A model generated the notes under the pieces. The model did no database searches. It was not told where the DNA came from and was given only the letters and a program-made list of their open reading frames with translations. Below are positions 12,795-42,922 of a stretch of DNA of 64,000 nucleotides, in pieces. Made by a program: the position numbers and the translations under genes. The DNA is from an uncultured Planctomycetia bacterium (GTDB lineage Bacteria > Omnitrophota > Gorgyraeia > CAYVEO01): contig CAYVEO010000006.1 in assembly GCA_964449965.1 (NCBI GenBank), forward strand, positions 308-64,307, written 5' to 3'. Position 1 is the stretch's first letter. Each line of letters opens with the position of its first letter.

Positions 12795-12810
12795 TGGCGG
12801 ACACCGTGCC
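12795..12810 (+). promoter_or_regulatory. candidate sigma-54 promoter TGGCGGACACCGTGCC (GG/GC 12 nt apart)
   Basis: -24 TGGC and -12 TGC at the consensus spacing. The predicted start (about 12821) lies 4 nt before the ATG at 12825. Overlaps a GTCCGCC/GGCGGAC hairpin that may terminate the upstream regulator gene. Confidence 0.35.
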
Positions 12811-12824
12811 CGCTCGCACAAAAG

Positions 12825-13751
12825 ATGCCTCTTCAAGGCAAATATGCCTCCTACTTAATTATAATATTACTGTACGCTTTCCCTGGTTTTTGTGAAGAGG
12901 TTAACCCAGCCAAATTCATATTCAGTATTGAGAGAGAGGCAAGCGAGGCATTAGAGAAACCAAAAGAAATATTTATAGACGTAGAGCATAGAGAAATCTA
13001 CGTGATAGACAATAAGGGAAAGGTAAGGCTCCAGGTATTTAATCTGGAAGGCTCATTTCTATACGACTTAGATATAGGGACAAAATTTAGCCTTATATCC
13101 GGTATTGGGGTATCAAAATCCGGCAGGATTTACATATCAGTCCCCGCTGCAAAAGAGGTGACAATCCTTGATTTTCGCGGGAAATTTATCAATAAACTGG
13201 ATTTCTCCGATATTCCTGAAACAAAAGAACTTCTCCCCGGGAAACTAACCCTTGATGCGGATGGAAACCTGTATTGCATTGACCACAAGAATCAACAGGT
13301 TCTGGTATTTGATGATAGGGATGGTTTCAAATTTAAATTCGGGTCAAAGGGAAATGATGACGGTAAATTTCAAAATATTTCAGACATAACGGTTTCTCAC
13401 AGCAATATATTTGTCTTAGATGCTTATCTGGGACGCATCTCAGTCTTTGATAAGGAAGGGAAGTTCCTGTTAAAATTCGGGCAAAAGGGCAGCGGTGTAG
13501 GCAAGATGAGCCAGCCATCAGGAATTGCCGTAGATAAGGACGGGAATATTTTTATAGCAGATAGTTTCAGGCACAATGTTCTTGTATTTAATAAGGATTA
13601 TAACCTGTGGTTTGAATTTGGTGGATTAGGAACAGGAACTAACTGGTTTATAAATCCTTCTGAGATAGCCATTGACGAAACGGGACGTATCTATGTAGTT
13701 GACTGGGGCAATGGCCGTATACAGGTATTTGAAATTGAGAAACCAAAATAA
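12825..13751 (+). CDS. secreted NHL-repeat beta-propeller protein (ORF-track start 12657 rejected)
   Basis: Signal peptide YLIIILLYAFPGFC followed by six repeats of the Y.[VA]D..N.R[IV]..F type. It is the gene immediately downstream of the sigma-54 regulator. Confidence 0.75.
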   Translation: MPLQGKYASYLIIILLYAFPGFCEEVNPAKFIFSIEREASEALEKPKEIFIDVEHREIYVIDNKGKVRLQVFNLEGSFLYDLDIGTKFSLISGIGVSKSGRIYISVPAAKEVTILDFRGKFINKLDFSDIPETKELLPGKLTLDADGNLYCIDHKNQQVLVFDDRDGFKFKFGSKGNDDGKFQNISDITVSHSNIFVLDAYLGRISVFDKEGKFLLKFGQKGSGVGKMSQPSGIAVDKDGNIFIADSFRHNVLVFNKDYNLWFEFGGLGTGTNWFINPSEIAIDETGRIYVVDWGNGRIQVFEIEKPK

Positions 13752-13817
13752 ATCCAATAAAGTTTTTGAGGTGGAAATTTCTTGCTTTTAGAGGGGATTT
13801 CTGGTAAGATATAAATA

Positions 13818-14120
13818 ATGAAAAAACTTCCTGGGTTCCTAAAAAAATATTTTTGGGATGTAGAATTTAAAAAAATAGACCCGAATAAAACTAAGATATA
13901 CGTTCTGAGGCGAATTCTTGATTATGGAGATGAGAAAGCAGTTACCTGGATGTACAAGAATTTTAAAAAATCAGAGATAAAAAATGCCTTGTCTAATTTT
14001 CGTGGCTATTCTCAAAAAAGTGCTAATTACTGGGCTCTTATATTAGATATACCAAAGGAAGAGGTATTATGTTTGAAGAAACGCTCATTAAGGGAGCGAA
14101 GGATATTCTGGCCTTATTAG
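13818..14120 (+). CDS. small hypothetical protein, possible cognate partner (antitoxin-like) of the downstream nucleotidyltransferase
   Basis: 100 aa basic protein overlapping the start of the next gene. No recognisable motif. Confidence 0.3.
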   Translation: MKKLPGFLKKYFWDVEFKKIDPNKTKIYVLRRILDYGDEKAVTWMYKNFKKSEIKNALSNFRGYSQKSANYWALILDIPKEEVLCLKKRSLRERRIFWPY

Positions 14121-14692
14121 GTCGTTCAAATATCTTAAAAGATGCATATTTGGCAGGTGGTACGGCAGCAGCCCTCCAATTAGGACACCGTATTTCTGTA
14201 GATTTTGACTTTTTTACTTCTAAGGAATTTGTGCCCAGAGTTTTTTCTACTGAACTATCAAAATTGGGTTCCTTTGACGAGGAACAGGCAGACAAAGGGA
14301 CCGTCTTAGGGGAATTTAAGGGGATAAAATTCAGCCTTTTTATCTATAAATACCCCTTAATTTTTCCTCCTAAAAAATATTTGTCATTGAATATAGCCGA
14401 TATTAGAGACATTGCCGCAATGAAAATAGACGCTATAGCAACTCGTGGGGCAAAGAGGGATTTTATTGATTCGTATTTTATATGTAAAGATGGTTACGGA
14501 TTAGATGAAATATTGGGGTTTTACAATAAAAAATACGGGAAATTGGTTTCTAATCTTATTCATCTTCAGAAAAGTTTAGTATATTTTAATGATGCTGAAC
14601 CAGAGATAATGCCAAAGATGTTAAAGAAAGTGAAGTGGGAAGAAATAAAAAAATATTTTGAGAACGAAGTAAAGAGATTGACAAGAGAATAA
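14069..14692 (+). CDS. nucleotidyltransferase of the AbiEii/DUF1814 toxin-like family
   Basis: LAGGTAAALQLGHRISVDFDFF ... DIRDIAAMKIDAIATRGAKRDFIDSYFI matches the minimal nucleotidyltransferase fold of AbiEii-type type IV toxins. Confidence 0.55.
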   Translation: MFEETLIKGAKDILALLGRSNILKDAYLAGGTAAALQLGHRISVDFDFFTSKEFVPRVFSTELSKLGSFDEEQADKGTVLGEFKGIKFSLFIYKYPLIFPPKKYLSLNIADIRDIAAMKIDAIATRGAKRDFIDSYFICKDGYGLDEILGFYNKKYGKLVSNLIHLQKSLVYFNDAEPEIMPKMLKKVKWEEIKKYFENEVKRLTRE

Positions 14693-14912
14693 GAAAAATT
14701 ACGCAAGAGTGCGTGAAATGCCGCAAGACATATCTTTAATAATTACAAAGTATTACGCTATTTTCCATGAGTTTTTGGATTAAACTGTGAATAATTTCGC
14801 AACCTGCATGATTTAAAACCTTCCTTAATGGGACGTCTCCCAAAAATATTTCCATATATAACCATATAATCCACATTGGGTTACATAAACACATTCCTTA
14901 AAATTATAGATT

Positions 14913-14928
14913 TGGCACGGAAATTGCT
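14913..14928 (+). promoter_or_regulatory. sigma-54 promoter TGGCACGGAAATTGCT (perfect -24/-12 consensus)
   Basis: TGGCAC-N5-TTGC with GG and GC 12 nt apart. The predicted start (about 14939) lies 2 nt before the ATG at 14941, giving an essentially leaderless transcript. Confidence 0.6.
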
Positions 14929-14940
14929 AATAATATAGGT

Positions 14941-15318
14941 ATGGTTGAAAAATATAGAATCCTGATAGTAGATGATGACAAATTAGTCAGGTGGTCTTTG
15001 ATAGAGGTTTTAAATAAAAATGGCTACGAGGCTACTTCTACTGAAACAGGAGAAGAGGCTATTAATAAGATTGAAGATGTAAAGTTTGATTTGGTTATAA
15101 CTGATTTGAGACTACCCGGGATAGGCGGATTTGAGGTCTTAAACAGGGTAAAAGAAATCAATCCATCTACAAAGGTAATCATGATTACTGCTTATGGCAG
15201 TGAAGGTGTAGCAAATGAGGCAAGGGAAAAGGGAGCCGAACTATTCGTGAATAAGCCTTTTGAGATAAATAGGATTAGAGAAGAGGTAAAGGAGATATTA
15301 TTAAAGGGAGGGGATTAG
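14941..15318 (+). CDS. single-domain response regulator (CheY-like receiver)
   Basis: 125 aa with RILIVDDD and the phospho-acceptor region DLVITDLRLPG. No output domain. Confidence 0.85.
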   Translation: MVEKYRILIVDDDKLVRWSLIEVLNKNGYEATSTETGEEAINKIEDVKFDLVITDLRLPGIGGFEVLNRVKEINPSTKVIMITAYGSEGVANEAREKGAELFVNKPFEINRIREEVKEILLKGGD

Positions 15319-15376
15319 AATGTGTAAGACTAAAGATATAAGGATTAAAAAAATAAGAGAGAAAGGAGGGATAGAG

Positions 15377-16393
15377 ATGAAGGGGATAGCAAGATATATT
15401 CTGATAGTGATGGGTGTAATAGCACTGGCAATGATTCTACCAATGGATAGTGTCTATGCAGTTCATAAGGGGGCAGGCGGATTGGACTGTTCAGGATGCC
15501 ATACTATGCACAATAGCCAGCAGGGTTCAACAATGGGTGGCGGTCCAACAGGGAGACTTTTAAAGGCAGCCGATACAGAAGGGCTATGTCTCTCGTGTCA
15601 TGATACTGCAGGCTCTCAATATACCACATATCAGGCGACTGTTCCGGCAGTGAAAGGAACCCCGTCTGGTACACCTGCGGCAGGAAATTTCACGGATTTA
15701 GACGGGACGAATGATGCCGCAGGGCAGACAGCCAAGGGTAAAGGGCATAACTTAGGTGAGGGGGCAGCTACATTAACTCCTCCGGGTGGAGCATCAATGA
15801 CTGGCTTTACCTGCACAAATTGCCACGACCCGCATGGTGTATCTACCGACAGTACTTCAGTTTCTGCATTCAGAAATCTGAGATTTAATCCAACTGGCTC
15901 AGGTGGTGGTGGACCATCAGTAATCAATGCAGGTCCTGCTGAAGGGACATTGGCAAGTGCAGTATATCCTGAGACGACTTACTATTATGGAAAGGTAACT
16001 GGTGGAGCCGCACTGAGTAATATATCCCAGTGGTGCGGGACATGCCATGATTCATTCTATGGCGATTCCAATACTGGTACAGCATCGCCTTATACACGTC
16101 ATGCGACCGGGAATCCTACAACGGCTCATAATTTGAGCGCTGTTGACTATACAAATTACTCTGGTGTAACAGAGGCAAGCAGGTTCCCTGCTGAAGATAG
16201 TGCTACAAGTGCAACTGCCAATAGTAGTAATACTACCAATAAGGCGGCAGGAAATGAGTCTGCTGATGGAGTTTTATGCTTATCATGCCATAAGGCACAT
16301 GCTACGGCTAATACTGATAGCTTGAGGTGGAGTTATGCAGCTGCGGCACAGTCCTCACCAGGCAGCGCTTGCCAGCAGTGTCATAACAAGTAA
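15377..16393 (+). CDS. hexaheme c-type cytochrome, Gly/Thr/Ser-rich (start at 15377 with a GGAGG RBS preferred over 15320)
   Basis: Signal anchor. Six CxxCH motifs (CSGCH, CLSCH, CTNCH, CGTCH, CLSCH, CQQCH). Low-complexity G/T/S-rich linkers. Confidence 0.75.
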   Translation: MKGIARYILIVMGVIALAMILPMDSVYAVHKGAGGLDCSGCHTMHNSQQGSTMGGGPTGRLLKAADTEGLCLSCHDTAGSQYTTYQATVPAVKGTPSGTPAAGNFTDLDGTNDAAGQTAKGKGHNLGEGAATLTPPGGASMTGFTCTNCHDPHGVSTDSTSVSAFRNLRFNPTGSGGGGPSVINAGPAEGTLASAVYPETTYYYGKVTGGAALSNISQWCGTCHDSFYGDSNTGTASPYTRHATGNPTTAHNLSAVDYTNYSGVTEASRFPAEDSATSATANSSNTTNKAAGNESADGVLCLSCHKAHATANTDSLRWSYAAAAQSSPGSACQQCHNK

Positions 16394-16522
16394 GTGAGAC
16401 GCAGGAAGGTAGTGAATTACCTTCTGAAGGTAACAAAAGGGTGTCAGTAGGTTTTCTACCTTTGACACCCTTTTTTCTTGCTTGACTTTGGGAGCAGAAT
16501 ATGCTAATTTGTATATAACATT

Positions 16523-17431
16523 ATGATGCTGCCTATAGTTATATTGTTTATTCTGACCAGGCAATTAGTTGCAGTTGCAGATGATACGCCTAAATTAAAA
16601 TATCTATATTCTATAAGTGAGTTAACTAAAAGCGAGGGCATATCAGAACCCCAGTCAATATTTATTGATAAACTGCATGATGAGATATATATAAGTGATA
16701 CAGGGAATAACCGTATTCTTGTATTTAACAAGGATGGATTACTAATTCAGAAGATTGATGGAGCAAAAAATATAATCTCACCTCTGGGGATAGCTGTTGA
16801 CGTTAAATTAGGTAACATCTACGTTAGCGAAAGAGAAAGCGGAAAATTAAAAGTCTTAAATTTTAGGGGTGAAGGAATCTTAGATATAGATCTTTCTAAA
16901 TTAGGCAGAAGTAGTATATCAATTGGCAGGCTCACACTTGATAAGTCGGGGAATTTATACGCTATTGATGGTATGAATCAGGAAATTCTTTCTTTTGACA
17001 TGTCAGGAAATTTCAGATTTAGATTTGGCGGCATCGGAACTAAAGAAGGACAATTTGAGATGTTACAGGATATAGGGATAGATGAAGACGGCAGGGTCTA
17101 TGCAGTCAGTTCCTTGGGGACTTCTGTTCAGGTATTTGACCGTGACGGCAGATACCTATCTGGTTTTGGTAAACATGGGGCTGATGAAGCAAAACTATCA
17201 TTTCCAGCAGGTATAGGGATAGACAGAAATAATAGACTTTGGCTTACTGACAGTTTCCAGCATTCTTTAAAGGTATTTGACCATAACGGGAAGTTTCTCT
17301 TTAAATGGGGAAATATGGGGAGCGGGAATGGTGACTTTTTATTCCCGGTAGACATTGATTTTGATAGTAAGGGGAATATCTATGTCCTGGAAAAAGGGAA
17401 TAGTCGTGTTCAAGTATTTGAGGAACAATGA
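16523..17431 (+). CDS. secreted NHL-repeat beta-propeller protein
   Basis: Signal peptide. Six NHL-type repeats (YISDTGNNRILVFN, YVSERESGKLKVLNF, LYAIDGMNQEILSFD, VYAVSSLGTSVQVFD, LWLTDSFQHSLKVFD, IYVLEKGNSRVQVFE). Confidence 0.8.
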   Translation: MMLPIVILFILTRQLVAVADDTPKLKYLYSISELTKSEGISEPQSIFIDKLHDEIYISDTGNNRILVFNKDGLLIQKIDGAKNIISPLGIAVDVKLGNIYVSERESGKLKVLNFRGEGILDIDLSKLGRSSISIGRLTLDKSGNLYAIDGMNQEILSFDMSGNFRFRFGGIGTKEGQFEMLQDIGIDEDGRVYAVSSLGTSVQVFDRDGRYLSGFGKHGADEAKLSFPAGIGIDRNNRLWLTDSFQHSLKVFDHNGKFLFKWGNMGSGNGDFLFPVDIDFDSKGNIYVLEKGNSRVQVFEEQ

Positions 17432-18356
17432 AATTCTTCCTGCAATTCTTGCAATCATTGTGTGGTCTGTTGCTGTCCCTGTTTCAGCAGGAGACTATCA
17501 CACTGTAGGCACTTCAAGTCTTATATGTTCGGACTGCCACACTATTCACTACACCCAGTTAGGGACAAGATATGAGGCAGGTGGACCATGGCCAAGGTTA
17601 CTGTTATATTCTGCTATAACAGGATTATGTCTATCCTGCCATGATGGGCAGACATCCATCCCTGATGTCCTGCAGGCAGCGGGTGCAGGCCAGCCTGCTA
17701 ACAGGGCTGCAGGTGCATTTCAGGCATTGTCCGGAAACTCTACGCCTAACGGTCATAATTTAGGTGTGGCAGGGACGCCTCCCGGAGGGACAGGCTCAAT
17801 GACTCTTACATGCACATCCTGTCATGACCCGCATGGTACTACTAATTACAGGAATCTTAAAACAAGCGTTGGCAGTGGTGGGGCAGCAATTACGTATTCT
17901 GCAGGTGGTTCTAATGACCTTGCTAAATGGGTGTGGGAGATTGCAACGACGCCGATGGCAACACACTATGATGTGAGCAATATAAGGTATAATGAACCCG
18001 TTACAACTGACTCCACATTCAGCGGGTGGTGTGGAGGCTGCCATGGGGATTTTCATGGACTCGTAAACACAGGCGACCCTGAACCATGGACCAGACACCC
18101 TACGGCAAAGGCAAATGTCTCTGCAACTACAAAAACCGATTATACTAACTGGAGCGGGATTACAGGCTCACGTGTTCCTGTAATGAGTGCAAGCGGGACT
18201 GTCCCTGCAACTGATAACACACCCTCGTGTCCATCGTGCCATAAGGCACATGGGTCAGGAAACAAATACGGACTTATATTTGATAATCCGTCAACTGCGT
18301 CATTAGAGGATGGGACGAGCATATTACAGACATGCCAGCAGTGTCATAATCAATAA
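17355..18356 (+). CDS. hexaheme c-type cytochrome, paralog of the 15377 gene
   Basis: Six CxxCH motifs (CSDCH, CLSCH, CTSCH, CGGCH, CPSCH, CQQCH). Same architecture and G/T/S-rich linkers as 15377-16393. The true start may be M10 at 17382. Confidence 0.7.
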   Translation: MILIVRGISMSWKKGIVVFKYLRNNEILPAILAIIVWSVAVPVSAGDYHTVGTSSLICSDCHTIHYTQLGTRYEAGGPWPRLLLYSAITGLCLSCHDGQTSIPDVLQAAGAGQPANRAAGAFQALSGNSTPNGHNLGVAGTPPGGTGSMTLTCTSCHDPHGTTNYRNLKTSVGSGGAAITYSAGGSNDLAKWVWEIATTPMATHYDVSNIRYNEPVTTDSTFSGWCGGCHGDFHGLVNTGDPEPWTRHPTAKANVSATTKTDYTNWSGITGSRVPVMSASGTVPATDNTPSCPSCHKAHGSGNKYGLIFDNPSTASLEDGTSILQTCQQCHNQ

Positions 18357-18364
18357 GGGGTTAT

Positions 18365-20014
18365 ATGAAAAAAATACTAATATCCACAGGAATATTGGTG
18401 CTCGTAATATCCCTTGCATTCTATCTCAAGAATGTGCTTGGCAGCGGTGGGTCATTCACCAAGACTGAACATGGCGGGACCGATGTAAATAGTAATTCAA
18501 CTACAGGTGTATATCGTTCTTCAGTAGATAAAACTGCTACAGGACATCCTGCAGCGGCAGGCGAATGTGTCCACTGCCACGAGCAGCATGCCAGCGTAGA
18601 GGGGACAGAACCTGTTCCTACAGGCGGTCCGGATGATTATCTGTTAATGCGTGCCAATGATAATAATCTATGCTATGAGTGTCATACCGGCAGTCTGAAC
18701 AGAATCTGGCCGGGTTCAGGCGCGTTGAATTATGACGGGTCAGGACATGGAAGTACAACCGCATTGTATAACAGCAGGGATGTTAAATTGTGTGTCCAGT
18801 GCCATAACCCGCACGGGGCCATTGATACAGATTACAGTGCCACAAATCCATCCCCGAGAATGACGAGATACATTGAAGAGAAGACCTGCCTGTCTAATAG
18901 CGGTGTCGCAGGTTCAGGGTGCCATGGAAGTTCAGGTAACCCTACAGGCGCAAAAAATATATATTCACTTTTCTATTCCAAAACATACAGGCACCCGCTT
19001 TCTCCTGCATTGGACGCTGTAAAAGGCAAGACAGGCGTGCATAGTTCGTTAGAATCCCAGTCAGCATATCCTACAGGGACTGCCTTTTATGGCGCTAACC
19101 GGCACGTGGAATGTGTTGACTGCCATAATCCTCACATGGCGAGAAATAATGGGACTGCCGGCAATAGTACCCATACGGCGACAGGCGCCGCATATCCTGC
19201 CCCGACTAACATTGCATCAAGGGCACTCTTAGGCACATGGGGTGTAGCGCCGACATACGGAGGGACTGCATGGGTAGCGCCTACCAGTTGGACTGTGCGG
19301 AATTTTACAACCGTGGATGATACAGCCAACAAAGAACATCAACTTTGTTTTAAATGTCATTCATCTTTTGCCTACGGCGGGACGCCGCCGACAGGTTATA
19401 CAGACCAGTCCATTGAATTTAACCCGAATAACAAGTCCTTTCACCCGGTCTATCAGGCATTTAATGTAGCCCCTCTGCATACCAATTCCTATACTACGCC
19501 TTCTGCTAATAATGGAAACATACAAACGATGGCAGCCCCGTTTAATACAACCAGCCCAAAGACGATGTATTGCAGTGACTGCCATGGGAGCGAGACTGAT
19601 GCAGACCCCGAGGGTCCGCATGGGTCAAATAATCAGTATATCATAATACGTTCCACGTCTGCTACAGATAATACATTATGTCTGAAGTGTCATCTAAGTA
19701 CTGTTTATACCCCGGCAAGCGCCCCTGGGTCGGGAACTGAGACAGGGACTAGATTTGACCAGCAGACAACAGGTGATGGTAGTGCAAATCATTATAACCA
19801 TGCAGTAAGCCGTGGTAAGTTCTGCCGGGACTGCCATGCAGGGACACAAATAGCGGCAGTGGGTAACAACCCTGCGGCATTAGCACCAGGGTCTGTTCAT
19901 GGAACAAACCTGGCTACAGGTTTTATGAACGGTGTAAATATAAATGTTTATTCAGCAGGCAGTTGTGACCCAGCCTGCCATGCCACTAAGACATACACTG
20001 CAGGCGTAGAATGA
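18365..20014 (+). CDS. multiheme c-type cytochrome (8 CxxCH plus one CX3CH-type CDPACH)
   Basis: Signal anchor. Motifs CVHCH, CYECH, CVQCH, CVDCH, CFKCH, CSDCH, CLKCH, CRDCH and an atypical CDPACH near the C-terminus. Confidence 0.75.
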   Translation: MKKILISTGILVLVISLAFYLKNVLGSGGSFTKTEHGGTDVNSNSTTGVYRSSVDKTATGHPAAAGECVHCHEQHASVEGTEPVPTGGPDDYLLMRANDNNLCYECHTGSLNRIWPGSGALNYDGSGHGSTTALYNSRDVKLCVQCHNPHGAIDTDYSATNPSPRMTRYIEEKTCLSNSGVAGSGCHGSSGNPTGAKNIYSLFYSKTYRHPLSPALDAVKGKTGVHSSLESQSAYPTGTAFYGANRHVECVDCHNPHMARNNGTAGNSTHTATGAAYPAPTNIASRALLGTWGVAPTYGGTAWVAPTSWTVRNFTTVDDTANKEHQLCFKCHSSFAYGGTPPTGYTDQSIEFNPNNKSFHPVYQAFNVAPLHTNSYTTPSANNGNIQTMAAPFNTTSPKTMYCSDCHGSETDADPEGPHGSNNQYIIIRSTSATDNTLCLKCHLSTVYTPASAPGSGTETGTRFDQQTTGDGSANHYNHAVSRGKFCRDCHAGTQIAAVGNNPAALAPGSVHGTNLATGFMNGVNINVYSAGSCDPACHATKTYTAGVE

Positions 20015-20835
20015 GATGGCTGCTCACAGGTCTTATCTTTGCAGGATTAGTCTGGGGGACAGTCTTTTTGGTCTTTCGCCAGTTAAAGCATCCAAAGAGA
20101 CTGAGGGGTTGGCTGATTACAGGGTTTCATGTATCTCTGGCTTTAGGTTTTTTGTTTCTCATATTAAGTAAACTGTTCAGGTTTGATGGAGAAATTGTTC
20201 TGGCTGAAGGACAGACTTTAAGGGAGGTTCATTCCGATTATATTTTTACACATGAGGGTCCGCTTTTTAAAGAGAATCACAAGGGTTTTTCATTGAGGTT
20301 AGATAAATTAGAATTAAGGCGTCCTCAGGGCATAGAAGAATATGTGAGCCATGTTACCTTACAATCAGGAAACAATAGTCCCATAAAAGCAGACGTGAGA
20401 GTCAATCACCCGTATAAATTTGAAGGGTTTTATATATATCATTTCAGGCAGGGTTTTTCTCCGTCTCTACTCATTAAAGATGCAGAGGGCAAAATTTTAT
20501 TGAATTCATTTGTGAATCTAAGCATAGTGAAGGATGAAAAAAACAGGGAAATCTCTCAGGATGAGGTGCGGTTAAGTAGTGAACGTCTTAACTTAAACTT
20601 GAAGTATTTCCCGGATAAAAAGAATTTACATATAGCTATTAAAGAGCATGAAGAATCCTCAAGTGAAGAAGTTATGGCACTCGGGGAGACCAGAAAGATA
20701 GGCGATTATAATCTCACCTTTAAGGAACTCAGGCGATGGAGCGGTCTCCGCTTGGTAAAAGACCCGTATCTTAATATGGTGTACTTCGGCTTTGTCTTAG
20801 GGATTATCTTTTTAGCAGGGATTATACTGATATGA
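20011..20835 (+). CDS. ResB/Ccs1-like cytochrome c biogenesis protein, second short copy
   Basis: N-terminal TM pair, periplasmic domain and C-terminal TM. Positioned directly upstream of a second ccsA, mirroring the 4180-6301 arrangement. Confidence 0.55.
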   Translation: MRWLLTGLIFAGLVWGTVFLVFRQLKHPKRLRGWLITGFHVSLALGFLFLILSKLFRFDGEIVLAEGQTLREVHSDYIFTHEGPLFKENHKGFSLRLDKLELRRPQGIEEYVSHVTLQSGNNSPIKADVRVNHPYKFEGFYIYHFRQGFSPSLLIKDAEGKILLNSFVNLSIVKDEKNREISQDEVRLSSERLNLNLKYFPDKKNLHIAIKEHEESSSEEVMALGETRKIGDYNLTFKELRRWSGLRLVKDPYLNMVYFGFVLGIIFLAGIILI

Positions 20836-21605
20836 AGTTAGAGTTTTTACTTATCTGGCTCACCATTCTCTTATATGCAATTGCTGCATTCGGGTATTTA
20901 GTGAGCGTTGTATTTGATAAGAAAAAAAGAATGGATATTTTAACATGGTCAGGCTGGCTCATCCATACATTTGCGATTATATGGCGTTGGTTCCGTATTG
21001 GCCATCCGCCATTTTTAAGTTTATTTGAATTGGTATCCTTAGGTGCATGGTTGACAATCCTGATATTTTTACTATTCAGTATAAGGCAGAGTAAAGGACG
21101 GGTATTAGGAGCAATAGTCCTGCCCTGGACATTTATATCTTTGGGCGTAGTCCTAAATACCCCAACTGCACCGGTTCCGTTAAATCCGGCGTTAAAGAGT
21201 TTCTGGCTATATATCCATATCGGGTTTGCTTTATTTACATACGGCTCTTATATCCTTTCAGCATCAGCGGCTGTCCTGTATCTGACAAAAAGAATGGAAG
21301 AGATGGATAAACTAAGTTATCGCTTTATACTCTTAGGTTTTTTGACACACGCCATCATGATAGTATCCGGTGCTGTCTGGGCAAATTTGGCATGGGGCAG
21401 ATACTGGGCATGGGACCCTATTGAGACATGGTCACTTCTTACGTGGATTTTATACGGGGGGTATCTACACTTAAGGTTAATTAAAGGGTGGAGAGGGAAA
21501 AGGTGTGCATGGATTTCCATTATCTCTTTGATTTTAATCATAATCTGTTTCTGGGGTGTGCCGGTCTTTTCCAGGACAATCCATGCTTTTGGAAAATTTT
21601 TTTAA
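20832..21605 (+). CDS. ccsA: CcsA-type cytochrome c biogenesis protein, second copy
   Basis: The WANLAWGRYWAWDPIETWSLLTWILYGGYLHLR Trp-rich signature. Polytopic. Confidence 0.8.
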   Translation: MKLEFLLIWLTILLYAIAAFGYLVSVVFDKKKRMDILTWSGWLIHTFAIIWRWFRIGHPPFLSLFELVSLGAWLTILIFLLFSIRQSKGRVLGAIVLPWTFISLGVVLNTPTAPVPLNPALKSFWLYIHIGFALFTYGSYILSASAAVLYLTKRMEEMDKLSYRFILLGFLTHAIMIVSGAVWANLAWGRYWAWDPIETWSLLTWILYGGYLHLRLIKGWRGKRCAWISIISLILIIICFWGVPVFSRTIHAFGKFF

Positions 21606-21608
21606 ATT

Positions 21609-24794: not shown

Positions 24795-24796
24795 AG

Positions 24797-27259: not shown

Positions 27260-27260
27260 T

Positions 27261-27283
27261 GTAGGACGGGCGTCTCGCCTGTC
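27261..27283. repeat. GC-rich palindromic hairpin GTAGGACGGGCGTCTCGCCTGTC just after the stop codon (terminator-like); near-identical copy at 49018-49040
   Basis: The stem GACGGGCG/CGCCTGTC is read from the sequence. The second copy GTAGGACAGGCGTCCCGCCTGTC is a perfect palindrome. Confidence 0.5.
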
Positions 27284-29291: not shown

Positions 29292-29298
29292 ATTATAA

Positions 29299-29784: not shown

Positions 29785-29785
29785 G

Positions 29786-30529: not shown

Positions 30530-30560
30530 TTACACAAATTAAAAATGTTTAGATGTCTTA

Positions 30561-30860
30561 ATGGGATACCAATGGCCTGGTAATATCAGGGAATTGAAAC
30601 ATTTGATAGAACGTCTTAGCCTGCTAAAAGTTGGAAAGAACATTAAACTAACAGACCTACCCCATGAGATGAGATTGCCTGTAGTTAACGGGAGAATATT
30701 AGAACCTGGTAAGTATTCTTTTCAGGAGGTAATTTCTTCTACCGAGAGAGAATTTATAACCTCTGCTCTCCAGATGGCAGGAGGCAACAAAAGCAAAGCA
30801 GCAGAGATATTGAAAATGAAACCCTCCACATTTCGGGATAAATTAAAAAAGATACGGTAA
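30561..30860 (+). pseudogene. C-terminal remnant of a sigma-54 activator (WPGNIREL plus Fis-type HTH only)
   Basis: The 99-aa ORF begins exactly at the YQWPGNIRELKHLIERL motif and ends with an HTH (AAEILKMKPSTFRDKLKKI). REC and AAA+ domains are absent. An intact paralog lies at 41368-42720 in the same relative position of the duplicated module. Confidence 0.55.
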
Positions 30861-30996
30861 CCCGTCATTCTCACGCAATTCCGTGAGATATTGTTATGAA
30901 GTCATTGCGAGGAACGTAGTGACGAAGCAATCTAATATTTATGTAACACATTTATAAACAACATGTTATATAAATCAGACATATCTGAATTTAACT

Positions 30997-31013
30997 TTGG
31001 CATGAAAATTGCT
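30997..31013 (+). promoter_or_regulatory. sigma-54 promoter TTGGCATGAAAATTGCT
   Basis: TGGCAT-N5-TTGCT with canonical GG/GC spacing. The predicted start (about 31024) lies 5 nt before the ATG at 31029. The ATGs at 30963 and 31002 fall inside or upstream of the promoter and are therefore rejected as starts. Confidence 0.55.
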
Positions 31014-31028
31014 ATAATTATGTATTAT

Positions 31029-32342: not shown

Positions 32343-32354
32343 CAGGAGGCTGTC

Positions 32355-33380: not shown

Positions 33381-33387
33381 AATAAAG

Positions 33388-33437
33388 TTGACAGTTAACA
33401 GTTTACAGTTGAAATGCCATAGTTGTTTACTGTAAAT
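33388..33437. promoter_or_regulatory. heptamer array GTTGACA-GTTAACA-GTTTACA-GTTGAAA plus inverted copy ACTGTAAA (TTTACAGT-N19-ACTGTAAA dyad)
   Basis: Shares the 19-mer ACAGTTAACAGTTTACAGT with 3565-3583. Sits between two cytochrome genes upstream of the 33480 RBS. Confidence 0.4.
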
Positions 33438-33479
33438 TAGAAAGTCATGGCTAAATTTATGTAAAAGGAGGTTTTTGAA

Positions 33480-36293: not shown

Positions 36294-36294
36294 G

Positions 36295-36414
36295 AAAAAA
36301 GGGGACGGTTCTATTTTTGGGAAAATTCTTAACTTTAAAACCTCATTGGTTACAGTCATAATAATTAAGTATTTCATCCCTTTCTCGCATTAAAAATAGA
36401 ACCGTCCCCTTTTT
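36295..36414. repeat. 120-bp element bounded by perfect 23-bp inverted repeats (AAAAAGGGGACGGTTCTATTTTT ... AAAAATAGAACCGTCCCCTTTTT)
   Basis: The arms at 36296-36318 and 36392-36414 are exact reverse complements, separated by 73 nt of AT-rich sequence. Lies directly after the cytochrome stop codon. Confidence 0.6.
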
Positions 36415-36455
36415 CCATTGACTTTTTTATTTTTACAAAGTAAAATACAGTCATC

Positions 36456-37086
36456 GTGGAGATACTACATTATTTTGCATCAGGGTTGTGCCACCAGATA
36501 CAGGACAGGAGTTTTCAGTTTGGCAGTTTTACCCTTCCATTCTGTGTTAGATGTACCGGGGTCTATTGGGGGGTGCTTTCTGGTTTCATCGGTGTCTGGT
36601 TAGCAGGTGGTGGAAAGAGAAGCGGGTTACCTGTCTCTACCATGAGATGGGTATCGCTTTTGTTGCTGTGCATATTTCCTGACAGAGAGGCTCTTGCCTT
36701 TCTCAGTCCCGCTTTTCGTTCGCACTTATATTGGCGTGGGATTTGGCATATCCTTCTCTATATATTTGATTCCACTCTTTAATTATTTTTTCTGGTATAA
36801 CAAAAGGGATAATAAACCAATACTTGATAAATTTACGGTATTTATCCTGATTTTATTTATGAGTCTAAGTATCTTTGAGTTTGGACGGTTTTCGGATTCT
36901 GTGGTCGCCGGATATATATTGGGAATTTTGTCTGTGGCTGGGGCAATGATTCTTTATCTTGTTCTTAATCTTACTATAATAAGTTCAATACCCTGGTTTC
37001 GCAGATTTCCCAGGAGTTATCTTGTCCGGATTCCTTTAAGTTTATTTTTAGCAATGGGAGAAATCACACTGATAAAAATATGGTAA
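36456..37086 (+). pseudogene. DUF2085-like small membrane protein, apparently split into two overlapping ORFs (36456-36782 and 36694-37086) by a frameshift
   Basis: The first ORF carries the CHQ...RSF...G..PFCVRCTGVYWG signature. Both ORFs are hydrophobic and overlap in different frames over 36694-36782. Confidence 0.35.
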
Positions 37087-38495
37087 AAGATACCATATCT
37101 TCATTATTTGGAAAAATCGGCATATATCTTCCTGCCCGGAAAGGAGAAGGTTTGAGAATCGGCAGGAGGTTCCTTACCTTTCTCGGGATATTATTTTTCC
37201 TGTCAATATTTGGCTTTATTGGACTTTTGGAATACAGCACAAGTCCAACATTCTGTAATTCCTGCCATGTGATGCACCCATATTACAACGCATGGAAGAC
37301 GTCAAGCCATAATTTTGTATCGTGCGTAGATTGTCACTATCCACCCGGACTTACAAAGGAATTCAAGGGTAAGATACAGGCAATCACGCAGGTGGCAAAA
37401 TTCGTGACACGGACATACAGCACCAAACCCTATGCTGAGATAGAGGATTCAAGCTGTCTCAGAAAAGGCTGTCATGAAAAAAGGCTGTTAGAAGGCAAGG
37501 TTACGTTCAAACGCGGTATCCAATTTGACCATAAGCCTCATCTTGTAGGTATGCGAAGAGGCAAGAAATTACGCTGTACCTCCTGCCATTCCCAGATAGT
37601 CCAGGGTCAGCATATTGCGGTTACTGAGGAGGTATGCTTCATCTGCCATTTCAAGGGTGAAAAGAACGGCAGGGAAATAACCCCTGTCGGTGGCTGCCCG
37701 CTCTGCCATGGTGCACCTGAGAAGGAAATAAAAGTTGCAGGGATGAGTTTTAATCACAAGGATTTCGTAGGTAGAGGAGTTGAATGCCAGAAGTGTCACC
37801 TTGATGCTGTCCAGGGAGAAGGCGAAGTTCCCAGGGAGATGTGTCTCACGTGCCATGGCGAACCTGAGAGACTATCTAAGTATGAAGACCATGAATTTAT
37901 CCACGAGAATCATGTAACAAAACATAAGGTGGAATGTTTCCAGTGCCATCTCACTATAAAACATGCTGTCCAGACTACTATCAAACCTCTGGAATATAGC
38001 TGTGATGTCTGTCACCTATCAAAACATGCAGGTGAAAAAGAGATGTATATGGGTAAAGGAGGCAGGGGAGTGGACGATATGCCAAGCCTTATGTTTCTGG
38101 CACAGGTAGACTGTGTGGCATGCCACATCAATCCTGGAGAGGAATTACCTGCTACGCACTTTGCAGGTAAAACCTATAAGGCTACCGGCGCTGCATGTTT
38201 TGGATGCCATGGCAAGGGCTACGCAGAGATGTTAGATAGTTGGAAAATTAGTATTCAGGAATCATTGGATGAGTTAGGACCTATTTTAGAAAAGGCAAGA
38301 GGATTGGTTCAATATTTAAATAAAGATGACTCTAAGTATAAAGAAGTATCCAGACTATTAGAGGATGCAGAATATAACTATAATTTTGTCAAGTTTGGAA
38401 AAGGTATCCATAACGTCTCTTATGCAGACTCATTGATAGAGGTATCTAAGAACAATGCCAGGAATATTATATCTATTATTTCTGAACAAAGGTGA
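37080..38495 (+). CDS. NapC/NirT-like membrane-anchored multiheme c-type cytochrome (11 CxxCH)
   Basis: An N-terminal TM followed immediately by CNSCHVMH and CVDCH, as in the NapC/NrfH/CymA family. I counted 11 CxxCH motifs. Confidence 0.75.
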   Translation: MVKDTISSLFGKIGIYLPARKGEGLRIGRRFLTFLGILFFLSIFGFIGLLEYSTSPTFCNSCHVMHPYYNAWKTSSHNFVSCVDCHYPPGLTKEFKGKIQAITQVAKFVTRTYSTKPYAEIEDSSCLRKGCHEKRLLEGKVTFKRGIQFDHKPHLVGMRRGKKLRCTSCHSQIVQGQHIAVTEEVCFICHFKGEKNGREITPVGGCPLCHGAPEKEIKVAGMSFNHKDFVGRGVECQKCHLDAVQGEGEVPREMCLTCHGEPERLSKYEDHEFIHENHVTKHKVECFQCHLTIKHAVQTTIKPLEYSCDVCHLSKHAGEKEMYMGKGGRGVDDMPSLMFLAQVDCVACHINPGEELPATHFAGKTYKATGAACFGCHGKGYAEMLDSWKISIQESLDELGPILEKARGLVQYLNKDDSKYKEVSRLLEDAEYNYNFVKFGKGIHNVSYADSLIEVSKNNARNIISIISEQR

Positions 38496-38899
38496 AAGAT
38501 ATGAATCGTCAATCCGAAAAAAGGTTATTAGTAGTAGATGATGAAGACCTACTAAGAAACTCTCTCGCCAAACTTCTTGCAATGAGAGGATATTCTGTCT
38601 TATCAGCTGCCGATGGCAACGAGGCGCTCAAATTAATTAAAGAAAATATGTTTCAATTGGTAATCACAGACCTTAAGATGCCTGGCATGAACGGTATGGA
38701 ACTTATCCATGAGGTTCGGAAATTGTCACCGGATACAAAGGTAGTGGTTATTACCGCCCATGGTGAGTGGAATACCTATCTTGAGGCTATGGAAAGAGGG
38801 GCGTTTGCATATCTTAATAAGCCTATCAATACGGGCGAGTTGTTTTCTACGATTAAAAGGGCATTGTTAGAAGGTGAAGGAAAAAATAAATTTACATAG
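38492..38899 (+). CDS. single-domain response regulator (CheY-like receiver)
   Basis: RLLVVDDE, the DLKMPGMNG phospho-acceptor region and a conserved Lys region. No output domain. Confidence 0.85.
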   Translation: MKDMNRQSEKRLLVVDDEDLLRNSLAKLLAMRGYSVLSAADGNEALKLIKENMFQLVITDLKMPGMNGMELIHEVRKLSPDTKVVVITAHGEWNTYLEAMERGAFAYLNKPINTGELFSTIKRALLEGEGKNKFT

Positions 38900-38948
38900 G
38901 GACAGAAAATAATAGACAGGGATGGTTTTTGGTGATAAAATATATATT

Positions 38949-39878
38949 ATGAATACAATAAAAAGAGTAATTGAAATATTACTGATATTCTTATTCGGAA
39001 CGGTTTTCTGTGGATGCGGAGAGCAGGAGAAGGCATTAAAAATAAAGTTTAAGGAAATAGACACATCCACCGGCCAGAAATCGTTAGATAGGGAACAGGG
39101 AGTTTTACGACTCGCCATCTCTTCTATGATATCACCGCGTGAAACAATTCACTGTTATCAGGATATATTTAATTATGTTGGCGAGAAACTAAACCGAAAG
39201 ATAAAAATAGTCCAGAAAGAGTCCTATGGAGAGACCAACGAACTTCTTCGTCAGGGAGAAGTTGACGTAGCGATGGTCTGCAGCGGCGCATATGTGGAGG
39301 CGCATGCCTCTTATGGCGCCGAACTCCTGTCGGCTCCCAAGCCACTCAGTGACAGGACATATTGTTCATACATCATCGTCCACAGAGACAGCCAGATAAA
39401 TTCAATTGAAGAGTTAAAGGGCAAGACATTTGCTTTCACTGACTCCCTGTCTAATACCGGGAGGCTTTATCCTGTATGGTTGCTTTCCCAGAAAGGATAT
39501 AAGCCTGAGACTTATTTTGCAAGATACATCTATTCAGGCAGTCATGATAATTCAATCCGTGCTGTCAGCGATGGTTTAATTGACGGGGCGGCAGTAGATT
39601 CTCTCGTATTTCTTTATATGAATACCAATCAGCCTGATGTTGTATCTCTCACCAGGGTAATAGCAGTATCACCTGTTTTTGGACTTCCTCCCTTAATTGT
39701 CCATCCCAGGATGGATGTTGAGTTAAAAAAGATTTTGCAGGAAATTCTGTTGAATATGCACAGCGATGAAAAAGGGAAGGTTCTACTTAGCAGGATAAAA
39801 ATAGAACGGTTTATTATTCCACAGGATATGGATTATGACCCTATAAGAGAAATGAAGAAGGCAGTGGGGTATGAATAA
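38949..39878 (+). CDS. periplasmic PhnD/SsuA-type (phosphonate-binding-like, AioX/ArxX-like) solute-binding lipoprotein (ORF-track start 38922)
   Basis: Lipobox FCGCG. LRLAISSMISP...ETNELLRQGEVDVAMVCSGAYVEA...GKTFAFTDSLSNTG...DGAAVDSLVF matches the PhnD-like type 2 periplasmic binding fold. Immediately upstream of the kinase and sigma-54 regulator. Confidence 0.65.
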   Translation: MNTIKRVIEILLIFLFGTVFCGCGEQEKALKIKFKEIDTSTGQKSLDREQGVLRLAISSMISPRETIHCYQDIFNYVGEKLNRKIKIVQKESYGETNELLRQGEVDVAMVCSGAYVEAHASYGAELLSAPKPLSDRTYCSYIIVHRDSQINSIEELKGKTFAFTDSLSNTGRLYPVWLLSQKGYKPETYFARYIYSGSHDNSIRAVSDGLIDGAAVDSLVFLYMNTNQPDVVSLTRVIAVSPVFGLPPLIVHPRMDVELKKILQEILLNMHSDEKGKVLLSRIKIERFIIPQDMDYDPIREMKKAVGYE

Positions 39879-41367
39879 AAAAAAGATAGAGAATGAATCA
39901 CTGAAGGTGCGGCCTATCTCCAGTTTGAAGTTCCGTATTCTGACAGGTGTCATAGGATTGGTTCTGCTTCCGGGAATAGTGGCGATTGTTATAGCACGGG
40001 GCAGACTCGGGTCCGCACTGGAAAAAGAATTGGTAGAACGCGGAGTAGCCATTACACGTACCGTGGCAGTCCGTAGTACAAAACCGGTTCTTACCACTGA
40101 TTTGTTTACATTGCATGAACTTATCAGAAATATTATTGACAGTAACAAAGACGTTAGATATGTGATAATCTACTACCCTGAAGAACAAATTTTAATCCAT
40201 TCATTTAAAAAAGGTATTCCTAAAGGATTATTGGAGGCTAATTATATACCAGAGGGGAAAGAATTTCACCATGTTTTGTTAGAGACAGAAGAGGGTAGTA
40301 TCCGGGATGTTATAGTTCCGCTCTGGGATAAGGGTAAGGGTGTAGTCAGGGTGGGTATGTCAGAACGGAGAATCAATCACCTCCTTTCCGGTGTTACCTA
40401 TCAAATGATTGGAGTCATAGGTCTGGTTTTATTGCTCGGTATAAGCGGGGCATACATTTTAACGACCATACTCACACGCCGGCTCTTCAACCTGGTAGAT
40501 ATGGCTGCAGCAGTTGGAAAAGGTGACCTTGATGCCAAAGCACCGCAAGAGAGCAATGATGAGGTAGGAAGTCTGACATCAGCGTTTAATTCTATGGTAG
40601 AAGACCTCAAACGCCACATTACCGAACAGAAGAAGATGCAGAGTCAGTTATTTCATTCAGGTAAATTAGCAGCGATGGGGGAATTAGCCAGTTGTGTTGC
40701 TCACGAGATTAACAACCCGCTTAGTTCTATAGCAGTTTGTGCTGAATCCCTTTTAGAACGGTTGTCTCAGGGTGCATTAAACTGCTGTCTTTCTGAGAGA
40801 GAAGAATGGACAGAGTATTTAAAGAGTATAGAGAAAGAAATTCATAGATGCAAGAAAATTACAACAGCCCTTCTCAGTCTATCAAATCTGAAAGAGCCGC
40901 AGATTGCACTAATTGACATAAACCAGTTACTTGAGAACATGCTACTTTTAGTAAAGTACCAGGCTGACCGCACAGGGAAGAAAATAATAATTAAACTCGG
41001 TTCAGAGTTGCCGCTTGTCCTGGCTGATGGTGACAGTCTCCAGCAGGTATTTTTAAATCTTATGATAAACGCATTAGACCATACAAACGGCGGAGGTAAG
41101 ATAGATATTTCCACACGTATCACCCGGAGAGAGGATAAACCCTGGGTTGAGGTTGTATTAGCAGACAATGGATGCGGAATTCCCAGGGAAAATCTGGATA
41201 AAATCTTTCAGCCATTTTTTACCACAAAGAAAGACGGTACTGGCAGCGGATTAGGATTGTCCATCTCTAAACGTATTGTTGAAGAACACAATGGGCAAAT
41301 TGTTGTGACGAGTCAACTGAATAAAGGTTCTGTTTTTTCTGTCTATTTACCACTGGAGAAAGATTAG
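39871..41367 (+). CDS. sensor histidine kinase (two TM helices, periplasmic domain of about 130 aa, HAMP, HisKA, HATPase_c)
   Basis: H-box ELASCVAHEINNPL. N/G boxes (LMINALDHT, DNGCGIP, GSGLGLSI). Confidence 0.85.
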   Translation: MNKKKIENESLKVRPISSLKFRILTGVIGLVLLPGIVAIVIARGRLGSALEKELVERGVAITRTVAVRSTKPVLTTDLFTLHELIRNIIDSNKDVRYVIIYYPEEQILIHSFKKGIPKGLLEANYIPEGKEFHHVLLETEEGSIRDVIVPLWDKGKGVVRVGMSERRINHLLSGVTYQMIGVIGLVLLLGISGAYILTTILTRRLFNLVDMAAAVGKGDLDAKAPQESNDEVGSLTSAFNSMVEDLKRHITEQKKMQSQLFHSGKLAAMGELASCVAHEINNPLSSIAVCAESLLERLSQGALNCCLSEREEWTEYLKSIEKEIHRCKKITTALLSLSNLKEPQIALIDINQLLENMLLLVKYQADRTGKKIIIKLGSELPLVLADGDSLQQVFLNLMINALDHTNGGGKIDISTRITRREDKPWVEVVLADNGCGIPRENLDKIFQPFFTTKKDGTGSGLGLSISKRIVEEHNGQIVVTSQLNKGSVFSVYLPLEKD

Positions 41368-42720
41368 ATGAATACTAAGATAAATCTGCTCATAGTTGAT
41401 GATGAAGAGACCCTTCGCCTGCATTTGAAAAAGGAGTTCCTGCGTAAGGACTACGAGGTCCATGAAGCAGGAGAAGGGCAGGCTGCTTTAAACATACTTA
41501 AAGAACATCATATAGATGTGGTTTTATTAGACCTCGTTATGCCAGGGTTAAGCGGTCTTGATGCATTAAAAGAGATTAAGGCAAATTATCCTCTCGTAGA
41601 GGTCATCGTCCTTACAGGAAATGCAACGATTGACACCGCTATCGCCTCTATGAAATTAGGCGCTTATGATTATCTGATGAAACCCTACAACATTGCGGAG
41701 TTATCCATGATTATAGAGCGGGCTCACAATCATGCCCTTCTTTCCAGAGATAGCCAGCGGTTACAGCACGAGTTGGCACGCCAGGCTAAGTTTGAAGACT
41801 TTATTCATGGAGATGAGAAAATGAAGTCAGTCTTTAAATTGATAGAAAAGGTGGCGCCGACTAATTCCACAGTCTTATTATACGGTGAGACAGGGACAGG
41901 AAAAGAACTCGCTGCCAAGTCTATTCACAAGAACAGTAATAGAAAAGAAAATTCTTTTATAGCAGTTGACTGCGGGGCTTTACAGGATACGTTGTTGGAA
42001 AGCGAGTTGTTCGGGCATGAACGCGGGGCGTTTACCGGAGCAATAAGGGATAAACAGGGGTTAATTGAAGTAGCAGACAGCGGAACACTTTTCCTGGATG
42101 AAATCGGCGATATCTCTCCTGCGATGCAGGTCAAACTCCTCCGATTCTTAGAATCAGGCGAGTACCGTATGGTGGGCAGTACCAGAGTTTTGAAAATAGA
42201 TGTGCGGATTATCGCCGCTACAAATCGGAATCTGGAAAGAATAGTGAAGGAGGGCAGATTCCGTGAAGACCTCTATTACCGGCTGAACGTTGTTAAGATA
42301 GAGATTCCGCCATTAAGAGAAAGAAAAGATGACATTATGCCTCTGGCAGAGCATTTTCTCAAAAAATATAATTCATCACTTGGAAGACATATTAAAGGTA
42401 TTTCTAAAGATGCGGAAGAGAAACTGTTAAGTTATGCCTGGCCAGGAAATGTTCGGGAACTTGAGAATGCCATTGAACGGGTCTCCATTCTTTGTGATAG
42501 TGACTGGATTACGATAGAAGACCTGCCTTTTCTTACCCCTAAAGGTACTCTGAATATAGAAAAAGGCAGTCTTGACTCTATGCCCCTTTCTGAATTGGAG
42601 AAAATGCACATTATTAATGTCCTTAAATCCTGTGATGGCAACAAGACCAGGGCTGCAGGTATCTTAGGTATTGAAGTCCGCACCCTTTACAATAAACTGA
42701 AAACTTACGATGTAACATAG
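41368..42720 (+). CDS. sigma-54-dependent response regulator (NtrC family)
   Basis: REC domain (LLIVDDEE, DVVLLDLVMPG). AAA+ domain with GETGTGKE, GAFTGA and ESELFGHERGAFTGA. C-terminal HTH. Confidence 0.9.
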   Translation: MNTKINLLIVDDEETLRLHLKKEFLRKDYEVHEAGEGQAALNILKEHHIDVVLLDLVMPGLSGLDALKEIKANYPLVEVIVLTGNATIDTAIASMKLGAYDYLMKPYNIAELSMIIERAHNHALLSRDSQRLQHELARQAKFEDFIHGDEKMKSVFKLIEKVAPTNSTVLLYGETGTGKELAAKSIHKNSNRKENSFIAVDCGALQDTLLESELFGHERGAFTGAIRDKQGLIEVADSGTLFLDEIGDISPAMQVKLLRFLESGEYRMVGSTRVLKIDVRIIAATNRNLERIVKEGRFREDLYYRLNVVKIEIPPLRERKDDIMPLAEHFLKKYNSSLGRHIKGISKDAEEKLLSYAWPGNVRELENAIERVSILCDSDWITIEDLPFLTPKGTLNIEKGSLDSMPLSELEKMHIINVLKSCDGNKTRAAGILGIEVRTLYNKLKTYDVT

Positions 42721-42868
42721 AGATGTTCTTAATACTGTGAAAAAAATTCCGTGTGTGTGAAAAAAATTCATGGTTTTGTTCCCACTGTTAATAACCTGCA
42801 TCCACATAAGACAATCTTAACATATTTAAATTTAATCAGTTACAAAAAATATAAGGTTTTTACGTTCT

Positions 42869-42886
42869 TTGGCATGAATTATGCTT
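42869..42886 (+). promoter_or_regulatory. sigma-54 promoter TTGGCATGAATTATGCTT
   Basis: TGGCAT-N5-ATGCT with GG/GC 12 nt apart. Predicted start about 42896, a 27-nt leader with a GAGGAG RBS before the ATG at 42923. Confidence 0.6.
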
Positions 42887-42922
42887 ATATATTGACTAAT
42901 AGTCATTGCGAGGAGTGCCAGA

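Follow-up and report, generated by a model that had tools for sequence, protein, structure and literature searches.

The 64 kb stretch of DNA analysed here (contig CAYVEO010000006.1; hereafter the window) carries a set of redox genes and four proposed sigma-54 promoters, termed S1 to S4, which are the subject of this report. Annotation of the window with Pfam places the redox genes nearly all on one strand. They encode multiheme cytochromes in large number (one protein of 1042 aa has 19 paired-CXXCH stretches), together with cytochrome b subunits, ResB/CcsA cytochrome c biogenesis proteins and a molybdopterin oxidoreductase. Two paralogous porin-like genes (435–437 aa, 52% identical to each other) and two complete pairs of sensor kinase and NtrC-type activator (9859–12706 and 39871–42720) are also present. 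A 65,308-nt NCBI contig encodes a protein identical to the 357-aa cytochrome at 15320–16393, and another member of the cluster is annotated as Candidatus Omnitrophica/Omnitrophota. The window is probably an extracellular-electron-transfer island of a Candidatus Omnitrophota bacterium, an assignment that forms part of the joint explanation developed below.

Every GG-N10-GC site in the window was scored against TGGCACG-N4-TTGCW (12 positions), and expected counts were taken from 200 shuffles. The four motifs of the original prediction are all found at their coordinates; S2, S3 and S4 stand as promoters by strength, position and conservation, but S1, at 7/12, is at chance level. S2, S3 and S4 each keep the exact 10-nt spacing between the GG and GC doublets within TGGCAC-N5-TTGCW and are intergenic on the + strand. 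Exact matches to TGGCAY-N5-TTGCW number two in the window, S2 and S3, both again on the + strand and intergenic. The S2 motif had been called perfect and does match at all 12 consensus positions (about 0.01 such sites expected per shuffled window, one observed). S3 matches at 11/12 (about 0.23 expected at that level or better, two observed, S2 and S3) and S4 at 10/12 (about 2.2 expected at that level or better, eight observed). With such counts the assignment of S4 needs context: the site is intergenic, on the + strand, directly after an activator gene and conserved in a relative (L005; L-numbers denote the loci or assemblies of relatives compared with the window). S1 falls below 8/12; about 42 matches are expected by chance at 8/12 or better and 55 were observed, so that more than 42 are expected at the 7/12 level of S1. 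The distances from the -12 C to the start codon had been calculated correctly: 14 nt at S2, 17 nt at S3, 39–42 nt at S4 and 16 nt at S1.

The S2 promoter and the CheY-like regulator

S2 precedes a gene for a single-domain CheY-like response regulator, whose Pfam Response_reg match spans residues 7–116; the ATG at 14941 lies 14 nt after the -12 C. If the C of the GC doublet is taken as -12, transcription would start at G14939. Differential RNA sequencing (dRNA-seq) of Campylobacter jejuni places the sigma-54 motif 8–13 nt upstream of mapped start sites (PMC3847290). The leader at S2 would thus measure 0–3 nt, although that C. jejuni range corresponds to about C+10 to C+16 and would also allow a start just past the A of the ATG. 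An mRNA counts as leaderless or near-leaderless when its 5′ untranslated region is at most 5 nt, a definition cited in PMC12754779.

The start codon is well fixed. From an in-frame TAA at 14899 up to 14941 there is no ATG, GTG or TTG, and residue 7 already belongs to the receiver domain, being its first; the start codon is therefore immovable in either direction. The original prediction had allowed that true start codons might lie further downstream. For S2 such alternatives were rejected because no ATG, GTG or TTG codon precedes the acidic residues of the receiver domain, and for S3 the start of the 437-aa product is supported as described below. Gene callers choose the same regulator start in L001, L002, L011 and L205. 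No Shine–Dalgarno (SD) site was found ahead of ATG 14941.

L001 and L002, read assemblies made independently, do not differ in the S2 region, and S3 is the same in a separate metagenome-assembled genome (MAG); an assembly artefact was rejected on these grounds. In L011, from Hainich groundwater, the S2 motif is invariant, the C-to-ATG distance is 14 nt and the cytochrome is 81% identical. In L205 (JGI 3300027819) the motif carries one C-to-T change, the cytochrome is 77% identical and a 1-nt deletion in the gap shortens the distance to 13 nt. Spacing from promoter to start is thus maintained, at 14 nt in the window and L011 and at 13 nt in L205, and AGGTATGGTT around the start codon is kept in both relatives. 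L205 also keeps a 240-nt S2 regulatory block, including the palindrome ACGCAARAGTGCGT, despite having another upstream neighbour.

The predicted 50 nt at the 5′ end of the S2 transcript fold at -0.7 kcal/mol, compared with -4.3 ± 2.0 kcal/mol for shuffles (z +1.8), and 199 of the 200 shuffles are no less stable. A sigma-70 reading of S2 was rejected, since the best -10 candidates found by eye match at 3–4 of 6 positions and the start would fall within the open reading frame (ORF). We regard it as a well-supported prediction that S2 is a conserved, well-constrained candidate for a sigma-54 transcript that is leaderless or has a leader of 2–3 nt.

We note that the toxin–antitoxin pairs abutting the S2 block differ, DUF6922/AbiEii in the window (13818–14692) and DUF6290/ParE in L205 (2837–3350). 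The site upstream of the block looks like a hotspot for the insertion of such pairs.

S3, S4 and the rejected site S1

At S3 the 19-mer TTGGCATGAAAATTGCTAT is identical in L004, L006, L007, L009 and L010; L003 has CGGCAT... at this position. Spacing is not maintained here. The distance from the C to the start codon is 17 nt only in the window and L007, and runs from 31 to 69 nt elsewhere: 31 nt in L009 and L010 (where a regulator gene comes first behind an AT-rich leader without SD), 60 nt in L006, 65 nt in L003, 66 nt in L005 (an S3-orthologous porin behind an S4-type promoter) and 69 nt in L004. The intergenic DNA upstream of the promoter in L007 is unlike that of the window, so the 17-nt state is real and common to two strains. 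From this comparison we take the 17-nt spacing to be a derived, lineage-specific deletion of the leader. The deletion junction created a perfect extended -10 element of sigma-70 type (Table 1), in place of which TATACT, TATATA or TATTAA is seen in the relatives. Whether read as sigma-54 or as sigma-70, the predicted S3 start lies 2–5 nt before ATG 31029.

No SD was found ahead of this ATG. It is also the start chosen by the NCBI Prokaryotic Genome Annotation Pipeline (PGAP) in MAG GCA_016193245.1 (L007), whose protein is 99% identical to the S3 porin, and it gives an N-terminal signal peptide equal in length to those of the homologues. A 459-aa version of the porin was rejected, as the homologues and the logic of the signal peptide favour 437 aa. 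A near-leaderless S3 transcript is plausible; since a sigma-70 extended -10 promoter fits the sequence just as well, its dependence on a particular sigma factor is uncertain.

The activator that would have served S3 survives only as a remnant, 80% identical to the full activator of L003. A clean deletion of about 2.5 kb (window 30530–30860 compared with L003 5946–8742) took the sensor kinase together with the receiver and AAA+ domains of the activator, so that kinase codon seven is now fused to the lid region, and the same deletion is found in L007 (GCA_016193245.1). The 99-aa remnant, with its lid and helix-turn-helix (HTH), could still bind DNA. The promoters had been described as lying downstream of or beside activator genes. 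This is only partly correct: S1 and S4 follow complete genes, S2 is 2.2 kb and three genes away, and S3 follows the remnant. The nearest complete activator to S2 is enhancer-binding protein 1 (EBP1), and EBP2 is directly upstream of S4. The GAFTGA loop is present in EBP2 and in the L003 activator. Conserved palindromes or direct repeats stand at a suitable distance upstream of S2, S3 and S4 and are candidate activator sites.

S4 is a conventional sigma-54 promoter arrangement. Its core, CTTTGGCATGAATTATGC, is identical in L005, as are both upstream TGAAAAAAATTC repeats. The conventional SD-containing leader of the gene at 42923 was correctly predicted, with GAGGAG in 27–30 nt; the SD is provided by a half copy of GTCATTGCGAGGAACGTAGTGACGAAGCAATC. 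This palindromic repeat family recurs in intergenic DNA, at 30899–30932 and 42900–42919 and also in L003, L004 and L011. The L005 porin is 76% identical to the S3 porin, to which it is orthologous, and 51% identical to the S4 porin. Alignment of L005 190–412 with window 42715–42935 reveals this S3-type porin joined to an S4-type promoter with its upstream repeats, and regulatory cassettes have therefore moved between paralogous porin–cytochrome clusters. Such exchange may explain the variable leaders.

S1 was rejected as a promoter because its chance-level motif lies inside a hairpin, the GG doublet being in the stem GTCCGCC/GGCGGAC. The site is enclosed by a GC-rich element of 156 nt (12701–12856) with 21-nt inverted repeats at its ends (12701–12721 and 12836–12856) and a folding energy of -60.4 kcal/mol (z -6.0). 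The element covers the stop codon of EBP1 and the ATG and first 11 codons of the NHL gene. Neither the window nor the fetched loci contain a further copy; the element may act in translational control or be an inserted repeat. Look-ups by exact sequence gave no record for EBP1 or for the porins of S3 and S4, which left the S1 region without a relative, and a porin-alignment scan of species-representative genomes likewise yielded no relative. A transposase pair of IS3 type (HTH_Tnp_1 and rve integrase) is located close to the end of the island, at 57945–59113.

Table 1 Positions of the promoters, associated elements and genes in the window
Feature	Position	Strand	Remarks
S2 sigma-54 -24/-12 promoter, TGGCACGGAAATTGCT	14913..14928	+	GG 14914-15, GC 14926-27
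Predicted S2 transcription start zone, C+11 to C+14	14938..14941	+	Predicted leader 0-3 nt, from standard -12 geometry
CheY-like response regulator, single domain	14941..15318	+	First gene of S2 operon; ATG, without SD
Multiheme cytochrome, 357 aa	15320..16393	+	Second gene of S2 operon; SD inside 3′ end of regulator gene
Palindrome ACGCAAGAGTGCGT	14701..14714	+	Candidate site for activator binding, some 200 nt upstream of S2; conserved in L205
S3 sigma-54 promoter, TGGCATGAAAATTGCT	30998..31013	+	C of GC at 31012
Extended -10, TGcTATAAT	31010..31018	+	Overlaps -12 element of S3
Palindrome TCTCACGCAATTCCGTGAGA	30869..30888	+	Candidate terminator or binding site, some 120 nt upstream of S3; kept in L003, L004, L007, L009
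S3 cognate activator remnant, 99 aa	30561..30860	+	AAA lid and HTH only
Porin-like outer-membrane protein, 437 aa	31029..32342	+	First gene of S3 cluster, followed by multiheme cytochromes; no Pfam match
S4 sigma-54 promoter, TGGCATGAATTATGCT	42870..42885	+	C of GC at 42884
Direct repeats of TGAAAAAAATTC, two, 20 nt apart	42738..42769	+	About 100-130 nt upstream of S4; candidate EBP2 binding site
SD GAGGAG	42910..42915	+	For S4 porin gene, TTG 42923 or ATG 42926
S1, TGGCGGACACCGTGCC	12795..12810	+	Not a credible promoter; part of hairpin GTCCGCC...GGCGGAC
EBP1, complete NtrC-type activator	11321..12706	+	GAFTDA variant loop (residue 221); sensor kinase 9859-11328
EBP2, complete NtrC-type activator	41368..42720	+	Receiver, AAA+ with GAFTGA, HTH_8; sensor kinase 39871-41367
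TTGACT-17-TAATTT	16482..16510	+	Ends 12 nt before SD-less ATG 16523, NHL-repeat protein
TTGACT-17-TAAAAT	36418..36446	+	Ends 9 nt before GTG 36456 (DUF2085)
TTGACT-17-TAAACT	56127..56155	+	Ends 6 nt before SD-less ATG 56162; classic leaderless layout
TTGCTT-17-TAAGAT	13782-13818	+	Weaker example; ends 7 nt before SD-less ATG 13818 (position given up to the ATG)

Short leaders and competing explanations

Among operon-first genes about half have a strong AGGAGG-type SD and the other half none. The pattern TTGACT-N17-TANNNT occurs three times in the window (0.72 expected), in each case intergenic, on the + strand and 6–12 nt before an SD-less start codon. The layout at 16482 is conserved, with 13 nt in L205 and 12 nt in L011. 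These layouts match the '-10 region adjacent to ORF' arrangement reported from Deinococcus-Thermus (PMC12340547). Since several sigma-70-type promoters end so close to SD-less starts, short or absent leaders look like a habit of the lineage, into which the short leaders of S2 and S3 would fit. A molybdenum cofactor (Moco) riboswitch at 50792–50915 (68.5 bits; region with promoter 50751–50915) acts as an internal control: a canonical TTGACA-18-TATAAT promoter ends 11 nt before it, so that promoters called by consensus appear reliable in this genome. As the riboswitch extends to 50915, moaA must start at 50923 or later and not at 50827 or 50836. In L205 (5166–5210) the automatic call of the NHL protein begins at a TTG within its own predicted promoter, an over-extension where an SD is absent. 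The DUF2085 gene (36456–37086) is broken into overlapping ORFs of 108 and 130 aa; it is a single 213-aa gene in L003, and a frameshift or sequencing error is thus probable.

The joint explanation that we consider probable is of three sigma-54-headed clusters, in which S2 would be near-leaderless, S3 deletion-derived and S4 conventional, S1 being no promoter. Each of the three porin/multiheme-cytochrome clusters would be headed by a -24/-12 promoter and would originally have had a dedicated sensor kinase and NtrC-type activator. At S2, RNA polymerase with sigma-54 would start 0–3 nt before the ATG of the regulator, which would be translated without SD from a leaderless or near-leaderless mRNA, and the cytochrome genes behind it would use their own SDs. 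At S3 a lineage-specific deletion took most of a 31–69 nt leader, leaving a predicted 5 nt or so, and the same lineage lost the kinase and most of the activator. The motifs, their spacings and conservation, the constraints on the start codons and the deletions are seen in the sequences, whereas start sites, sigma-54 dependence and translation of the first genes are deduced from promoter geometry and comparison of relatives. Where three leaderless or near-leaderless mRNAs had been predicted, we retain two candidates: the leaderless state is predicted for S2, plausible but weaker for S3 and rejected for S1.

Several observations weigh against this explanation. The start sites of S2 and S3 are predictions that rest on promoter geometry, and a start at C+15 or C+16, in or past the S2 start codon, would leave the regulator untranslatable from that transcript. 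Overall conservation of the 240 nt upstream of S2 is 84%, which makes retention of the motif by itself weak evidence. S2 is 2.2 kb from EBP1, its nearest complete activator, which has GAFTDA in place of GAFTGA, and S3 has no intact cognate activator, EBP1 and EBP2 being 35–38% identical to the remnant over lid and HTH. The gene for sigma-54 itself, rpoN, was not found in the 64-kb window. In-frame ATGs occur upstream of the S3 start and one annotation gives the 459-aa product, beginning upstream of the promoter. The S3 AUG is predicted to lie within a weak hairpin (-6.7 kcal/mol, z -0.4).

Comparators were gathered by an exact-pattern scan with TTGGCAYGRAAATTGCTAW in species-representative genomes; the 80 loci that it listed belong to Bacillota, Poribacteria, Spirochaetes, Fibrobacter and further groups. 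The smallest C-to-start distance among the 52 of these 80 that could be evaluated, by an SD-supported start, is 24 nt, and none of the 52 is at 20 nt or less. Because an SD site was required to call the start, the set is biased against leaderless genes, and comparators L149 and L157 could have distances of 18–24 nt. An unrelated metagenomic cytochrome locus (L032, 2990–3030) has TGGCATGATAATTGCT and an SD-less ATG at C+21, for which a leader of about 9 nt is predicted; this lineage may thus not be alone in having short leaders behind sigma-54 promoters.

A wider generalisation is that the lineage routinely sets its promoters, sigma-54 promoters included, against start codons, so that electron-transfer operons start with a leaderless mRNA and a CheY-like first product. 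We advance this only tentatively. Somewhat unlikely, in our judgement, is the view that S3 is no longer a sigma-54 promoter in this lineage, being either used by the housekeeping sigma factor through TGcTATAAT or silent and decaying. The window and L007 alike retain only the lid and HTH of the activator, TTAACT-16-TGcTATAAT ranks with the best sigma-70-like sites of the 20 kb scanned, and relatives whose activator is intact combine weaker -10 hexamers with long leaders. The GG-N10-GC core of S3 is still perfect, however, all ORFs downstream are intact and 99% identical between two assemblies, and a paralogous activator elsewhere in the genome may serve the site. As a sigma-70 start would also fall 2–5 nt before the ATG, the conclusion that S3 is near-leaderless is unaffected.

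The sigma-54 promoters could also be real and their transcripts mainly feed the SD-bearing cytochromes, with the S2 regulator made only from upstream read-through. The cytochrome gene at 15320 does have its own GGAGG SD, the + strand has no T-run terminator between the AbiEii gene and S2, and the C. jejuni start range permits a start at or beyond the S2 ATG. Read-through is nevertheless hard to reconcile with the + strand of 14693–14940, in which no sigma-70-like promoter reaches at least 9/12, and with the comparison to L205, where the upstream gene has changed (AbiEii against ParE) while the 240-nt block and the 13–14 nt spacing are constant. The S2 5′ end is moreover predicted to be unusually unstructured and other genes of the lineage share the promoter-abutting layout; we consider read-through distinctly improbable. 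That the motifs are chance matches in AT-rich intergenic DNA, none of them functional, is suggested by S1 at only 7/12 and by S4-level scores at about two per shuffled window, but is very remote given that S2 and S3 lie far above the shuffle expectation, that the S2, S3 and S4 motifs are conserved amid diverging intergenic DNA with complete or remnant activator genes alongside, and that homologous cytochrome loci from many metagenomes have the same motif in the same orientation.

Relation to known systems and significance

Canonical sigma-54 (-24/-12) promoters, such as glnAp2 and nifH, are activated by enhancer-binding proteins of the NtrC family. The promoters of the window resemble them in the TTGGCAY-N5-TTGCT core, the exact GG-N10-GC spacing, the intergenic position ahead of an operon and the candidate binding sites 100–200 nt upstream. 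They differ in that the start codons at S2 and S3 stand 13–17 nt after the -12 C without SD, and in the truncated activator of S3. For Clostridioides difficile SigL, 23 of 30 promoters are reported to adjoin an activator gene (PMC7438776), and in the window complete or remnant activator genes likewise lie nearby. In the leaderless layout of Deinococcus-Thermus the -10 region is adjacent to the ORF (PMC12340547); the S2 promoter resembles these mRNAs and those of Actinobacteria in abutting the AUG, in lacking an SD and in a 5′ end predicted to be unstructured. The promoter of the window is, in contrast to both, of the sigma-54 class, for which an ATP-dependent activator is needed, and the phylum is Omnitrophota.

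The gene order also has a counterpart. The ombB-omaB-omcB genes of Geobacter are a porin–cytochrome gene cluster for extracellular electron transfer. The window has, in the same way, an outer-membrane-type protein of about 435 aa followed by periplasmic-size and large multiheme cytochromes, repeated as paralogous clusters. Unlike in Geobacter, the porin-like protein, with its putative porin fold, matches no Pfam family, and regulation of the clusters would be divided among three kinase/activator/sigma-54 modules.

Neither sigma-54 promoters nor leaderless mRNAs are new, but the two have been studied in largely separate bacterial groups. Searches of the literature, one of them on leaderless mRNA in Omnitrophota, found no description of leaderless sigma-54 transcripts, and the two terms occur separately in the passages checked, which is not proof of absence. 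To our knowledge, the phyla best known for leaderless mRNAs, and richest in them, are without sigma-54, and this may explain the gap. The mechanism of neither process forbids the combination, and its practical value is modest. Gene-start annotation is affected, the S3 porin being 22 residues too long in one assembly and the L205 NHL gene being called from inside its promoter. If the prediction is true, a conserved sigma-54 promoter 13–14 nt from a fixed ATG would mean activator-dependent transcription feeding directly into SD-independent translation. The Omnitrophota, an uncultured phylum, would also be marked as users of leaderless mRNA. Under the wider generalisation, leaderless sigma-54 transcripts would be documented as a class for the first time, and SD-independent translation would be indicated as a regulatory layer for these redox modules.

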